A DNA stretch of 8,078 nt from a virus (Duplodnaviria > Heunggongvirae > Uroviricota > Caudoviricetes), in the IMG/VR virus record IMGVR_UViG_2606217173_000005; one strand, given 5' to 3'. Positions 1-8,078 of the stretch are shown piece after piece (within the stretch, counting starts at the first letter, position 1; each line of letters starts with the position of its first letter). The position numbers were made by a program, and so were the translations under genes. The notes below the pieces were generated by a model, which had not been told where the DNA came from, did no database searches, and saw only the letters and a list, made by a program, of their open reading frames with translations.

Positions 1-1026
<1,026 letters not shown>

Positions 1027-1033
1027 TCAGGAA

Positions 1034-1049
1034 CTTGTTCGCACCTTCC
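1034..1049. repeat. IS5 terminal inverted repeat (transposase-proximal end)
   Basis: cttgttcgcaccttcc is the reverse complement of GGAAGGTGCGAACAAG; the element boundary at 1049 is followed by CTAG. Confidence 0.85.
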
Positions 1050-1244
1050 CTAGCGCAACATGCTCTGCTTATAGCAATTTCAAGCGACTTAAATGCATAT
1101 GGTGTTGTGTGTGAGTTCGACTGGAATGATGGAAATGGTCAGGAAGGATGGCCTCCAATGGATGGTAGTGAAGGAATAAGAATTACCGATATCGATACAT
1201 CAGGAATATTTGATTCAGATGATATGACTATCAAAGCCGCCTGA
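1050..1244 (+). pseudogene. 3' remnant (about 64 codons) of a gene apparently split by the IS5 insertion
   Basis: The reading frame is open from inside the IS end through 1244 (…CEFDWNDGNGQEGWPPMDGSEGIRITDIDTSGIFDSDDMTIKAA*); there is no start codon with an RBS inside the non-IS part; it is codirectional with the downstream operon. Function unknown. Confidence 0.35.
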
Positions 1245-1279: not shown

Positions 1280-2248
1280 ATGAGTGAAGTAACAGATTTA
1301 GTTGTTATTGAAAAAGCAAATGCAATGACTGTATTTCAGTCTGCCGACCAGATTGAAGAAATCCTTCAAAAGGTTGAACGTGAAGTTATGTCCTTTGTGC
1401 CTGATATCACAACGGCAAAGGGCAGAAAGGAGATCGCTTCTCTGGCGTATAAAGTTGCGCAGACGAAAACATATCTCGATGGTCTTGGCAAAGACCTTGT
1501 TGCTGAACTGAAGGAAATTCCAAAGCTAATTGATAACAACCGCAAGACAGTGCGCGATCGCCTTGATGAACTGAAAGCCAAGGCGCGCCAGCCTCTTACT
1601 GATTATGAGGAGGAACAGGCACGGATTAAAGCCGAAGAAGAAGCTAAGGCAGCAGCTGAAGCTCTCGCAAAGCAAATTGAGTCTGACCATGAAATAGCGA
1701 TTTTGATGGATCGCGAATTTGACCGCCAAAGAGAAGAGGCAAGACTCAAAGCGGAGCAGGAAAAGCGAGAGCATGAAGAACGCTTAAAAAGAGAAGCTGA
1801 AGAGAAAGCCAGAGCTGAAGCCGAAGCAAAGGCAAAAGCCGAAATTGAAGCAGCAGCAAGGCGAGAAGCAGAAGCTAAGGCCGCAGCGGAACGTGCAGAG
1901 CGTGAACGCATTGAAGCCGAGCGACGAGCACAGCGCGAAGCAAAAGAGGCAGCAGAACGAGCGGAAAGAGAAAAGCAGGCGGCAATTGAAGCAGAACGCC
2001 GAAAAGCACAGGAGGAGGCAGAACGAATCCGGCGCGAGGCTGAAGCAAAAGAGCAAGCCAGAATAGCAGAAGAAAAAAGAATCAAGGACGAAGAAGAGCG
2101 TAGAGCAAAGGATAAAGCTCACCGGAAAGAAGTAAATAACAAAATACTTGCTGACCTTATCAAGGTTGGCGCATCAGAAGATGTTGCTAAAAATATCATA
2201 ACAGCCATCGTAAAAGGCGAAGTATTCGCAACAAAAATAACCTACTAA
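1280..2248 (+). CDS. Hypothetical phage protein with a structured N-terminal domain, a roughly 170-aa E/R/K/A-rich helical region and a short C-terminal domain
   Basis: 322-aa ORF with a strong SD (AAGGAGG at 1269-1275) shortly upstream of the ATG; the central region is low-complexity AEAKAKAEIEAAARREAEAKAAAERAERERIEAERRAQREAKE...; no family recognised with certainty. Confidence 0.8.
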   Translation: MSEVTDLVVIEKANAMTVFQSADQIEEILQKVEREVMSFVPDITTAKGRKEIASLAYKVAQTKTYLDGLGKDLVAELKEIPKLIDNNRKTVRDRLDELKAKARQPLTDYEEEQARIKAEEEAKAAAEALAKQIESDHEIAILMDREFDRQREEARLKAEQEKREHEERLKREAEEKARAEAEAKAKAEIEAAARREAEAKAAAERAERERIEAERRAQREAKEAAERAEREKQAAIEAERRKAQEEAERIRREAEAKEQARIAEEKRIKDEEERRAKDKAHRKEVNNKILADLIKVGASEDVAKNIITAIVKGEVFATKITY

Positions 2249-2272: not shown

Positions 2273-2419
2273 ATGATTTACGCAATCGCGGGAGGCGCTC
2301 GCATGGGTGCCTTCCAACTAAATGAATCTTTACTTGAACGAATCACCCGTAAATTACGTGACGGATGGAAACAACTCATCGACGTACTTAATCAGCCAGG
2401 AGTTCCCAAAAATGGATAA
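2273..2419 (+). CDS. cIII: CIII-like inhibitor of FtsH (HflB) protease
   Basis: 48-aa ORF MIYAIAGGARMGAFQLNESLLERITRKLRDGWKQLIDVLNQPGVPKNG with RBS AAGGA upstream; the ESLLERITRKLRDGWKxLIDxLNQPGVPKNG segment matches my recollection of the lambda CIII amphipathic-helix core. Below the size cut-off of the supplied ORF track. Confidence 0.7.
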   Translation: MIYAIAGGARMGAFQLNESLLERITRKLRDGWKQLIDVLNQPGVPKNG

Positions 2420-2525
2420 AACACTTATGGCTATCCAGACTAAATTCACTATCGCCACTTTTATTGGCGATGAAAAGATGTTTCGTGAGGCCGTCGAAGC
2501 CTACAGGAAATGGAGGTCAAAATGA
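2412..2525 (+). CDS. Small ORF at the position occupied by kil in lambda (possible Kil-like host division inhibitor)
   Basis: 37-aa ORF MDKTLMAIQTKFTIATFIGDEKMFREAVEAYRKWRSK; AGGAG at 2398-2402 precedes the ATG; overlaps the cIII-like stop by 8 nt and the next ORF as ATGA. Assignment is by position and size only. Confidence 0.4.
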   Translation: MDKTLMAIQTKFTIATFIGDEKMFREAVEAYRKWRSK

Positions 2526-2710
2526 TTCCGGTAGAACTGGCGAAAACTCCAGAGTTAAGTCGATTAAAAAGAGAATATCACATTGCTGAGGCTCGTTACT
2601 GGCGTAAAGCGGGAGATAAATCAAAGAAACAACTTTGTTTATGGCAGGCACAAAGAGAGCGCATGAATGAGCGCGAGTTTCTTTCCTCCCCATCCGAATT
2701 ACCATTCTGA
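2522..2710 (+). CDS. Hypothetical small basic protein (62 aa)
   Basis: GGAGG at 2512-2516 then ATG at 2522; ATGA overlap with the upstream ORF; stops 8 nt before the Sak4-like gene. Confidence 0.5.
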   Translation: MIPVELAKTPELSRLKREYHIAEARYWRKAGDKSKKQLCLWQAQRERMNEREFLSSPSELPF

Positions 2711-2718
2711 GGCAAATT

Positions 2719-3399
2719 ATGGGAACTGCGACATTAATACTCGGTGAGTCTGGCACCGGAAAATCAACCAGCATGAGAAATATCAATCCAGAGGAAGCAA
2801 TACTTATAAAACCAATAGGCAAGCCGCTACCATTTAAATCAAAAGAATGGCTGGCATGGGATGCCAGAGCAAAAAAAGGAACCGTAGTTACCACTGACAA
2901 ATGGGACGTAATAGTTGCCGTAATTAAGCGTGCTCACGAATACGGGAAAAGAATCGTTATTGTTGATGACTTCCAGTATGTGATGAGCAATGAGTTTATG
3001 CGCCGTTCAGAAGAAAAGTCGTTTGATAAATTTACTGAGATAGGCCGCCACGCATGGGAGGTGATTAAGGCTGCACAGGATGCGCCTGATGACCTGAGAG
3101 TCTATTTTCTTGCGCACACCGAAGAAACACCTATGGGGCGCGTGAAAATGAAAACTATCGGCAAAATGCTGGACGAGAAAATCACTGTTGAAGGCATGTT
3201 TACTATAGTTCTTCGCACCCTTACCCGTGATGACCAGTTCTTTTTCACCACGAAAAACAACGGTGCAGACACTGTTAAATCCCCAATGGGAATGTTTGAT
3301 ACCAATGAGATTGATAACGATCTCTCTTTCGTCGATGCCACTGTTTGTGATTACTACGGCATCAATAATGTTCATCAAATTAAGGAAAACGCCGCATGA
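2719..3399 (+). CDS. Sak4-like RecA-core ATPase (phage single-strand annealing protein, AAA_24-type)
   Basis: 226 aa; N-terminal Walker A LILGESGTGKST; Walker B-like RIVIVDDFQ; size and motif order typical of phage Sak4; RBS GAGG upstream. Confidence 0.8.
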   Translation: MGTATLILGESGTGKSTSMRNINPEEAILIKPIGKPLPFKSKEWLAWDARAKKGTVVTTDKWDVIVAVIKRAHEYGKRIVIVDDFQYVMSNEFMRRSEEKSFDKFTEIGRHAWEVIKAAQDAPDDLRVYFLAHTEETPMGRVKMKTIGKMLDEKITVEGMFTIVLRTLTRDDQFFFTTKNNGADTVKSPMGMFDTNEIDNDLSFVDATVCDYYGINNVHQIKENAA

Positions 3400-3983
3400 G
3401 CAACGTGATTTTTACTTATAACGAAGAAGCAGCACTGACCGCAGGGCAAGGTGGTTTTATTAACGAAACTGGCGCTCATATAATTACCATTACTGAAGCA
3501 GAACTAAAGCAATCAGAAAAAGGCGCAAAATTTATTGAGTTTTCTGGCGAATCCGACGACGGACGTAAAATACAATATCTTAGCGTTTGTGTTCAGAAAA
3601 ATGACGGAACGGAAAATAAATTTGGCGCAAATGTCGTCCACGCCATGATGGGGTGTGTTGGGATTAAGCGGTTAACGCAACATATGGTTTCCGCCAGTAA
3701 ATTTGTTGCACCTGAATTTCATGGAAAGAAAATCGGGTTAGTGCTCCAGAAAGTATTAACCACAAACAAAAAGACTGGCGCAGACAGCTACCAGATGGAA
3801 ATACGCATCCCGTTTATTGCACAAACAGGTCAAACCCTTAAAGAAAAGTCGGAAGGCAAGCAACCAGAAACTATCGCCAACATGGCTGCCAACCTCAAAG
3901 ATAAAGACAATCGCTCTAAAAACGTAAGCCAGAATCATGCAGATGATTATGGTTACAGCCAGAACGATTACCCTCCTTTCTGA
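3396..3983 (+). CDS. Putative phage SSB-like partner of Sak4 with acidic/aromatic C-terminal tail
   Basis: 195 aa; ATGA start/stop overlap with the Sak4-like gene; C-terminus ...HADDYGYSQNDYPPF resembles the SSB C-terminal tip (DDDIPF-like); RBS AAGGA at 3382-3386. OB-fold not verified. Confidence 0.7.
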   Translation: MSNVIFTYNEEAALTAGQGGFINETGAHIITITEAELKQSEKGAKFIEFSGESDDGRKIQYLSVCVQKNDGTENKFGANVVHAMMGCVGIKRLTQHMVSASKFVAPEFHGKKIGLVLQKVLTTNKKTGADSYQMEIRIPFIAQTGQTLKEKSEGKQPETIANMAANLKDKDNRSKNVSQNHADDYGYSQNDYPPF

Positions 3984-7832: not shown

Positions 7833-7877
7833 ATTACCTGATTTGCAGGTTCGATTCCCTATTTGGAGATAGCACTC

Positions 7878-8078
7878 ATGCAACACGAACTACAGCCTGA
7901 TTCACTGGTTGATTTGAAATTCATCATGGCCGATACTGGCTTCGGTAAAACCTTCATCTATGACCGGATTAAGTCCGGCGACCTGCCAAAAGCCAAAGTT
8001 ATCCACGGGCGAGCAAGATGGTTATATCGTGACCATTGTGAATTCAAAAATAAGCTCTTAAGCCGCGCCAATGGGTAA
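7878..8078 (+). CDS. torI: Excisionase / recombination directionality factor of the Xis-AlpA-TorI winged-helix family
   Basis: 66-aa ORF MQHELQPDSLVDLKFIMADTGFGKTFIYDRIKSGDLPKAKVIHGRARWLYRDHCEF...; the pattern F-x-Y-x-x-I-x-x-G-x-hPK-x-x-K-x-G-x-x-x-RW is typical of AlpA/Xis-type excisionases; length and sequence match my recollection of TorI of prophage KplE1 (CPS-53), not database-verified; GGAG at 7865-7868 precedes the ATG at 7878. Confidence 0.75.
   Translation: MQHELQPDSLVDLKFIMADTGFGKTFIYDRIKSGDLPKAKVIHGRARWLYRDHCEFKNKLLSRANG

Follow-up and report, generated by a model that had tools for sequence, protein, structure and literature searches.

The short open reading frames (ORFs) packed into positions 2273-2710 of the window (the whole stretch of 8,078 nucleotides of Caudoviricetes DNA analysed here, IMG/VR record IMGVR_UViG_2606217173_000005) raise the question of whether they are genes at all and, if so, whether all three belong to one functional unit. 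The original prediction had read them as a host-takeover module resembling cIII and kil of phage lambda, with a single frameshifted gene as the alternative. Its description of the trio proved exact in every particular: three plus-strand ORFs of 48, 37 and 62 aa (2273-2419, 2412-2525 and 2522-2710), the first pair overlapping by 8 nt (ATGGATAA, 2412-2419) and the second pair by ATGA (2522-2525). Direct reading of the sequence places a Shine-Dalgarno motif ahead of each start codon: AAGGA (2261-2265) lies 7 nt 5' of the ATG of the first ORF, AGGAG (2398-2402) 9 nt 5' of the second and GGAGG (2512-2516) 5 nt 5' of the third. The assignments reached for the three ORFs are as follows.

2273-2419, plus strand: cIII, 48 aa (MIYAIAGG...PKNG), FtsH protease inhibitor and lysogeny factor by homology (Pfam, alignment with lambda, NCBI name).

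2412-2525, plus strand: kil, 37 aa (MDKTLMAIQ...KWRSK), FtsZ-ring assembly inhibitor by homology (Pfam, alignment with lambda and HK629).

2522-2710, plus strand: hkaM, 62 aa (MIPVELAK...SELPF), an orphan small basic protein with a pI of 9.6 (phrog_1723, match to HkaM of HK620).

Profile searches with the translated ORFs gave strong matches in each case. ORF1 covers the whole of the Pfam Lambda_CIII model (PF02061, 1-42 of 42) with 83.6 bits against a cut-off of 25.7 (E = 9.8e-24) and also matches phrog_550 (E = 4e-28), while ORF2 covers the full Lambda_Kil model (PF06301, 1-31) with 76.8 bits against a cut-off of 27.6 (E = 8.4e-22) and matches phrog_3924 (E = 1.7e-26). ORF3 matches phrog_1723 over the entire profile (1-58 of 58, E = 1.6e-33). 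With the Pfam values for the first two ORFs and the PHROG value for the third all far beyond chance, the three ORFs are real genes. Searches for other kinds of element were negative: Rfam identified no RNA family anywhere in the window, and a promoter and terminator scan found a number of sites that was not above that in shuffled controls.

The surroundings of the trio were compared with those of known phages, for which the flanking features of the window are also needed.

1-1050, minus strand: IS5 copy, with a transposase ORF at 1-981; the window starts inside the element.

1280-2248, plus strand: highly charged coiled-coil protein of 322 aa (phrog_1376), given as 'TolA-like' or hypothetical in database records.

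2719-3399, plus strand: sak4 (hkaL homologue), a core-only RecA-like ssDNA annealing ATPase (phrog_2872, E = 4e-108; Pfam AAA_24; HK620 annotation; PMC5928155).

3396-3983, plus strand: phage SSB of the DUF669 type (hkaK homologue), ending NDYPPF (phrog_743; PMC5928155).

4007-4303, plus strand: abc2, an anti-RecBCD protein (Pfam PF11043, 201.6 bits).

At the DNA level the region compared is 98% identical to phages APC_JM3.2, HK620 and HK629. The HK620 genome (NC_002730) carries the run cIII-kil-hkaM-hkaL(sak4)-hkaK(ssb)-abc2 with the same genes, order, overlaps and premature cIII stop, at 98% DNA identity over the part compared; it differs in that its cIII N-terminus is lambda-like rather than P22-like and in that it has Arg at the position of lambda R32. 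APC_JM3.2 matches in all of the same respects (genes, order, overlaps, cIII stop, 98% DNA identity over the part compared), and additionally shares both the P22-like cIII N-terminus and the 322-aa gene, which lies directly upstream of cIII in both. In related prophages the gene order runs from cI and pL through the 322-aa gene, cIII, kil, hkaM, sak4, ssb and abc2 on to xis (torI), and in the window an Ead/Ea22-like gene and a TorI-type excisionase are found further downstream of abc2. The cIII-kil-hkaM trio has been annotated in HK620 since the original annotation of 2001, where the third ORF received the name hkaM; cIII and kil are also annotated in the APC_JM3.2 record, and only kil in that of HK629. 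As to their chromosomal setting, related prophages adjoin dsdC or csc genes.

The comparison with lambda made in the original prediction, of overlapping cIII and kil genes upstream of the recombination genes, also holds. In the lambda pL operon the homologous cIII and kil (75% and 91% identical, respectively) overlap by 32 nt, kil and gam overlap by 46 nt, and the recombination genes follow. Unlike the window, lambda encodes a CIII of 54 aa and a Kil of 47 aa, with homology to the window stopping at Kil codon 34, and has gam-bet-exo after kil, without hkaM, sak4 or abc2. The c3-kil-arf-erf segment of P22 follows the same operon logic, and the N-terminus of its C3 protein (MIIAIAGSARMG...) resembles that of the window CIII, but P22 Kil (62 aa) and Arf (47 aa), translated and compared by eye without alignment, show no visible similarity to Kil and HkaM of the window. 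We are thus highly confident that the trio belongs to the early-left (pL) operon of a lambdoid E. coli prophage of the HK620/P22 type, in which it forms the cIII-kil-hkaM stretch; its gene identities, order and coding status were established computationally. In such an operon one transcript would carry the three tightly packed small genes, each with its own ribosome-binding site, and the overlaps of stop and start codons would permit translational coupling between them. At the level of the module there is nothing new, as these are textbook lambdoid genes that are already annotated in public genomes.

The original prediction had further expected standard gene callers to miss or mis-start the trio. 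RefSeq PGAP and the HK620 annotation do not bear this out: PGAP calls all three ORFs with the same lengths, and in E. coli genomes gives the first two, at the same coordinates, the names 'protease FtsH-inhibitory lysogeny factor CIII' and 'host cell division inhibitory peptide Kil'. The expectation is correct for the HK629 record, in which a 79-aa 'Kil' is annotated and cIII is missing. Six proteins were run against NCBIfam and none had a match, although CIII and Kil do receive names from PGAP, presumably via other rule types.

The 79-aa 'Kil' of HK629, which runs across the cIII region, is one of the observations that would be expected if a single ancestral gene had been split by a frameshift or stop into halves of 48 and 37 aa, or if a longer Kil started inside cIII. 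The frame of kil is indeed open across the cIII stop, as had been pointed out, and extends upstream to an ATG at 2322 to give an ORF of 67 aa; moreover, the 'Kil' profile phrog_2461 spans 89 positions and shows a weak match to CIII (E = 0.0065) in its N-terminal part. By chance alone, a run of ~30 stop-free codons would arise in about one case in four. Against a single gene, cIII and kil of lambda are experimentally defined as separate genes in different frames, the ATG at 2322 is absent in lambda, HK620 and HK629, and kil has an AGGAG motif of its own 9 nt before its ATG. The Pfam Kil model, furthermore, starts at residue 2 of the 37-aa ORF, and CIII forms of 48 aa and 56 aa are both common and widely circulating in public data. 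Passage from the cIII frame into that of kil would require a +1 shift, and no slippery site suited to such a shift was found on direct reading of the sequence; a programmed cIII-kil frameshift was rejected on the same ground. The reading as one gene was therefore discarded as extremely improbable, and cIII and kil are treated below as two separate genes.

Beyond the Pfam match, ORF1 is identical to lambda CIII at 36 of 48 positions, so that the CIII core originally seen in the 48-aa ORF is that of a true homologue, and its membership of the CIII family is, judged by sequence, certain. Within the early-left operon the gene sits ahead of kil and the recombination genes, and its DNA is a lambdoid mosaic: in an alignment with lambda, HK620 and APC_JM3.2 the first ~50 nt are unlike lambda and similar to P22 c3, and the middle is nearly identical to lambda. 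The protein is shorter than the corresponding full-length form because of a single C-to-A change relative to lambda (TCA to TAA), which also turns Gln3 of Kil into Lys. The resulting TAA stop is common to HK620, HK629 and APC_JM3.2 (and is noted in the HK620 record), and it costs only six C-terminal residues, outside the region of lambda CIII (residues 14-37) that is reported to be essential and sufficient for activity as a competitive FtsH inhibitor that stabilises CII (PMC1838920). By homology to lambda CIII, the window protein would be a peptide with an amphipathic helix and a competitive inhibitor of the membrane protease FtsH, and inhibition of FtsH would in turn stabilise CII and favour lysogeny.

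Within the essential region, 20 of 24 residues are identical between ORF1 and lambda CIII, including S17, R24, L26 and R27. The equivalent of lambda R32, by comparison, is Gln34 (CGA to CAA), at a position where Arg is present in every homologue compared that aligns without a gap in this segment (16 in one comparison and 8 in another). The exact Gln34 allele was found on only 19 public contigs. In lambda, Ala substitution at any of S17, R24, L26, R27 or R32 results in a cIII-minus phenotype, and R32A is both cIII-minus and dominant negative. Because Gln occupies the position at which R32A abolishes activity, the Gln34 CIII is possibly impaired, and the allele is perhaps a naturally occurring variant, either loss-of-function or dominant negative.

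A second change with possible consequences for the operon lies upstream. The inverted repeat GGAACTTGTTCGCACCTTCC at 1031-1050 and the CTAG target that follows it at 1051-1054, both read directly from the sequence, are presumably the terminal features of an IS5 element. The insertion interrupts the early-left operon ahead of the trio and truncates the gene preceding the 322-aa coiled-coil ORF; it distinguishes the window from HK620 and APC_JM3.2, and homology to the prophages begins only after it. An IS5 at this position could lower expression from pL or uncouple the genes from it. Taken with the Gln34 substitution, the conserved Arg that it replaces and the rarity of the allele, the interruption of the upstream gene would be compatible with a decaying remnant, in which cIII has been inactivated by R34Q and the operon cut off from pL so that the genes are present but non-functional. 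However, the substitution is to Gln and not to Ala, all five genes from kil to abc2 are intact, and the rest of the prophage lies outside the window. N-mediated antitermination in lambdoid phages is, in addition, able to read through insertions. Decay of the module is accordingly considered possible but somewhat unlikely, and the preferred reading remains that of an early-left operon segment in which CIII may be impaired.

ORF2, the second gene, is identical to lambda Kil at 31 of 34 positions, with the G19-D20 turn included, and to HK629 Kil (likewise 37 aa, with a C-terminal RSK) at 36 of 37, the sole difference being V/I at residue 28, where the window and lambda both have Val. The Kil-like ORF of the original prediction is thus a true Kil homologue. 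It keeps the helix-turn-helix core, the turn and the C-terminal RSK, ending KWRSK as does HK629 Kil; an RSK/RSSK motif at the C-terminus of Kil has been suggested to be possibly of functional importance (PMC11762379). Disruption of FtsZ rings in a ZipA-dependent manner has been shown for lambda Kil, and a truncated HK629 Kil' of 32 residues, which corresponds to residues 6-37 of the window Kil with the one V/I difference, disrupts Z rings, blocks division and needs ZipA (PMC11762379). By homology to these two proteins, the window Kil is predicted to be a helix-turn-helix peptide that dismantles FtsZ rings with the aid of ZipA, and the loss of the rings would lead to a transient block in division. 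The exact protein is present on at least 1000 public contigs.

ORF3, the third gene, is 98% identical to HK620 HkaM. An alternative start at ATG 2510 would extend the protein to 66 aa but with a poorly spaced ribosome-binding site, and database records mostly use the 62-aa start. In comparisons of the window with Salmonella phage ST64T and among distant relatives, dN/dS was ~0.14 where computable, with synonymous sites saturated and non-synonymous divergence of 0.17-0.39; the other two reading frames there are interrupted by stop codons and have no excess of synonymous change. HkaM is a genuine protein under strong purifying selection. The family is small: when 1.8 billion representative proteins were searched exhaustively with a profile, only 22 relatives were returned. 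Its members, 56-62 aa long, are confined to lambdoid phages of Enterobacteriaceae, and the few that carry an organism name come from E. coli, Salmonella and Buttiauxella. Scans of viral contigs with P0032 and P0028 returned no relatives. HkaM itself occurs on thousands of prophage contigs of E. coli and Salmonella, with the exact window protein on at least 1000 public contigs.

The AlphaFold2 model of HkaM consists of two helices predicted with high confidence (residues 10-30 and 33-49) and a tail of low confidence, with no strands; an OB-fold ssDNA-binding domain is absent from it. A PDB sequence search with the HkaM profile gave nothing meaningful (best E = 0.8), and a Foldseek search of the model against the PDB matched only generic helical hairpins with E above 1, the fold being too small to inform. 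Seven residues (S13, A24, R28, G31, E46, P61 and F62) do not vary among the 17 family sequences compared, whose identity falls as low as 34%.

The sample for gene neighbourhood comprised 7 annotated records and 26 viral contigs with distant relatives, of which the 7 records and 13 of the 26 contigs were classified by script and 4 more contigs by eye. In all of the script-classified and eye-read loci hkaM directly precedes a recombinase gene of the Erf or Sak4/AAA_24 type. The gap between the two is 8 nt in all but four of the script-classified loci, those four having a 2-nt gap or an overlap, and in the window the hkaM stop likewise lies 8 nt before the sak4 start. An SSB gene follows downstream in most of the modules inspected, with the exception of ST64T, which has abc1 there. 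The upstream neighbour of hkaM, in contrast, varies between a lambda-type Kil, an unclassified 35-aa ORF, an Arf-like ORF (phrog_2123) and nothing recognisable. Because the recombinase is the constant neighbour while the upstream gene varies, HkaM belongs with the recombination module and not with cIII and kil; the cIII/kil-like module originally proposed therefore stands for the first two ORFs and falls for the 62-aa ORF. The operon would, on this arrangement, pass from kil into a recombination module that has hkaM as its first gene, followed by the recombinase, SSB and abc2.

The close coupling of hkaM to kil could instead indicate that HkaM is a partner or modulator of Kil, such as an antidote or co-factor. 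The ATGA overlap between the two genes recurs in HK620, HK629, APC_JM3.2, ST64T, ES18 and CurroJimenez as well as in the window, and in distant loci the 35-aa ORF that occupies the Kil position is coupled to hkaM likewise. Nevertheless, there are HkaM homologues without Kil directly upstream (an Arf-like ORF takes its place in L012 and in loci of the L013 type, and no ORF is recognisable in L032 and L034), lambda has kil without hkaM, and the neighbour that does not change is, as described above, the recombinase. A role as a Kil partner is therefore very unlikely.

Within the recombination module, hkaM occupies the slot between kil and the recombinase that is filled by arf in P22, and it was first annotated as arf on the basis of that position, although HkaM is an orphan without homology to P22 Arf (Hutinet et al., PMC5928155). 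The PHROG label 'recombinase' for HkaM probably traces to this original positional annotation, and phage annotation pipelines label the protein 'recombinase' without any basis. With the recombinase as its constant neighbour, HkaM might be supposed to be the positional and functional equivalent of Arf, an accessory factor acting directly on the recombinase, which would also account for the label. Several observations speak against this. HkaM has no sequence similarity to Arf, the former matching only phrog_1723 and the latter only phrog_2445, and some loci hold HkaM together with an Arf-like ORF, so neither is a substitute for the other. An identical HkaM precedes Sak4 in the window and Erf in phage CurroJimenez, that is, recombinases of different families. 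Furthermore, Sak4 and SSB alone provide the full stimulation of oligonucleotide recombineering obtained with the whole HK620 module (PMC5928155), so HkaM is dispensable in that assay and is not needed for Sak4/SSB recombineering. Equivalence to Arf is thus unlikely, though less so than a partnership with Kil.

The C-terminal tail of HkaM is suggestive of a different kind of activity. Its C-termini read ELPF, DLPF, EMPF, KIPF, EPPF, ECPF or EQPF, usually after FLG, and the terminal Pro-Phe is invariant in all 17 sequences compared, even at 34% identity. Most members have one or two acidic residues close before it (SELPF, GDDLPF, GEPPF), others none (GPCPF, GPAPF). The window has 82 ORFs of 50 aa or longer, of which only two, HkaM and SSB, end in PF; they flank sak4. 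In the C-terminal tip of bacterial SSB, change of the penultimate Pro (ssb113, Pro-to-Ser) or of the terminal Phe to Cys disrupts binding to ExoI, RecQ, PriA and other proteins (PMC3159472), and the NDYPPF tail of the HK620-type SSB, which the HkaM tail also resembles, is required to stimulate Sak4 (PMC5928155). HkaM resembles the bacterial tip in ending (D/E/x)-(L/I/M/P/C/T/A)-Pro-Phe with a free carboxylate on a tail predicted to be flexible. It differs from bacterial SSB in having no OB fold and no run of three Asp and in its length of 56-62 aa, so the likeness is at the level of the motif only.

Given this resemblance, and as HkaM and SSB are the sole ORFs of that size in the window with the PF ending, we put forward as a hypothesis only, tentatively and in the knowledge that it is rather unlikely to be correct, that HkaM is a free-standing mimic of the SSB C-terminal tip that protects or redirects recombination intermediates. 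The basic two-helix hairpin would present a flexible ...(D/E)-x-Pro-Phe-COOH tail. This tail would dock where the SSB tail normally binds, either on host genome-maintenance proteins such as ExoI, RecQ, PriA or RecO or on the phage annealase, and the docked protein would then shield recombination intermediates or alter their course. Several observations weigh against the idea: the three-Asp run is lacking and some members have no acidic residue beside Pro-Phe, HkaM can be dispensed with in oligonucleotide recombineering, and the structure and sequence matches offer no independent functional hint.

Mimicry of a different peptide, the FtsZ C-terminal DYLDIPAF, was also considered because hkaM is coupled to kil. 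It was dropped, as the invariant Pro of HkaM is penultimate, the register is not kept throughout the family and HkaM occurs without kil.

The practical value of these results is that of an annotation check, since small overlapping genes are sometimes still mis-called, as in the HK629 record. The only elements with some novelty are the Gln34 allele of cIII and the SSB-tip-like tail of HkaM. If the proposal for the tail is true, HkaM would represent a new means by which phages disturb the SSB interaction hub of the host, and it could possibly be of use in recombineering.

The original prediction held that standard gene callers would miss or mis-start the small genes of this region, and the record of phage HK629 (NC_019711) is one such case: it contains no cIII gene, and a 79-aa 'Kil' is instead annotated in the kil frame through the cIII region (L009 1463–1702). 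This 79-aa 'Kil' is an annotation error. The other ORFs and elements considered here, within the window and in the comparison loci (L-numbers), are as follows.

Window 1–981, minus strand: IS5 transposase ORF
Window 1–1054: IS5, with the end of its inverted repeat at 1050 and a CTAG target at 1051–1054
Window 1280–2248: 322-aa ORF, phrog_1376
Window 7863–8078: TorI-type excisionase, last ORF; called torI in the annotation of related E. coli genomes
L026 1469–1576, L033 3897–4004 and L035 3897–4004: 35-aa ORF, e.g. MDIVKALQLLAVDARRVGNNDLFQVAFCLFYRGSK
L013 3892–4080 and L023 3907–4080: small Arf-like ORF, phrog_2123, with weak similarity to P22 Arf

In the distant loci L026, L033 and L035, the 35-aa ORF lies between the cIII homologue and hkaM, the slot occupied by Kil, and is likewise ATGA-coupled. 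It has no match in Pfam or PHROG; its sequence starts with MD, carries a Gly-Asn or Asp-Asn pair at the site of the Kil Gly-Asp turn and terminates in R-G-S/M-K, features that may mark it as a distant analogue of Kil.

In the cIII gene of the window, codon 34 (2372–2374) is CAA (Gln), where all compared homologues with an ungapped alignment at this position encode Arg, by CGA or a different codon; only 19 public contigs carry the Gln34 allele. Substitution of the equivalent lambda CIII residue, R32, by Ala gives a cIII-minus, dominant-negative phenotype.

Upstream, the early-left operon is interrupted by the IS5 insertion, which truncates a gene, leaving a C-terminal remnant that extends to 1244, and may exert a polar effect on cIII-kil-hkaM expression. 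The 322-aa ORF, labelled 'TolA' in some records, contains a long Glu/Ala/Lys/Arg coiled-coil stretch of extreme charge, and cIII lies directly downstream of it in a subset of related phages. At the opposite end, the TorI-type excisionase as last ORF places the prophage within the KplE1/HK620-like integration-module group.

Between the window (2522–2707) and Salmonella phage ST64T (L004 2501–2686), HkaM protein identity is 68% and 93% of hkaM synonymous sites differ, exceeding the ~75% expected at saturation, although with only ~39 such sites the excess may be noise. In some prophages (L013, L023) the first ~80 nt of hkaM also belong to the Arf-like ORF, so that Arf-like and HkaM proteins co-occur. 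Both genes flanking sak4 terminate in Pro-Phe (HkaM, ...SELPF, 2699–2710; SSB, ...NDYPPF, 3969–3983), the only two of the 82 window ORFs of at least 50 aa to do so. In most loci (window 2708–2721; L004, L005, L006 and L026–L037), 8 nt separate the stop codon of hkaM from the start codon of the recombinase gene, with Erf and Sak4 alike, a spacing that suggests the start of the recombinase gene as the exact junction of module exchange.
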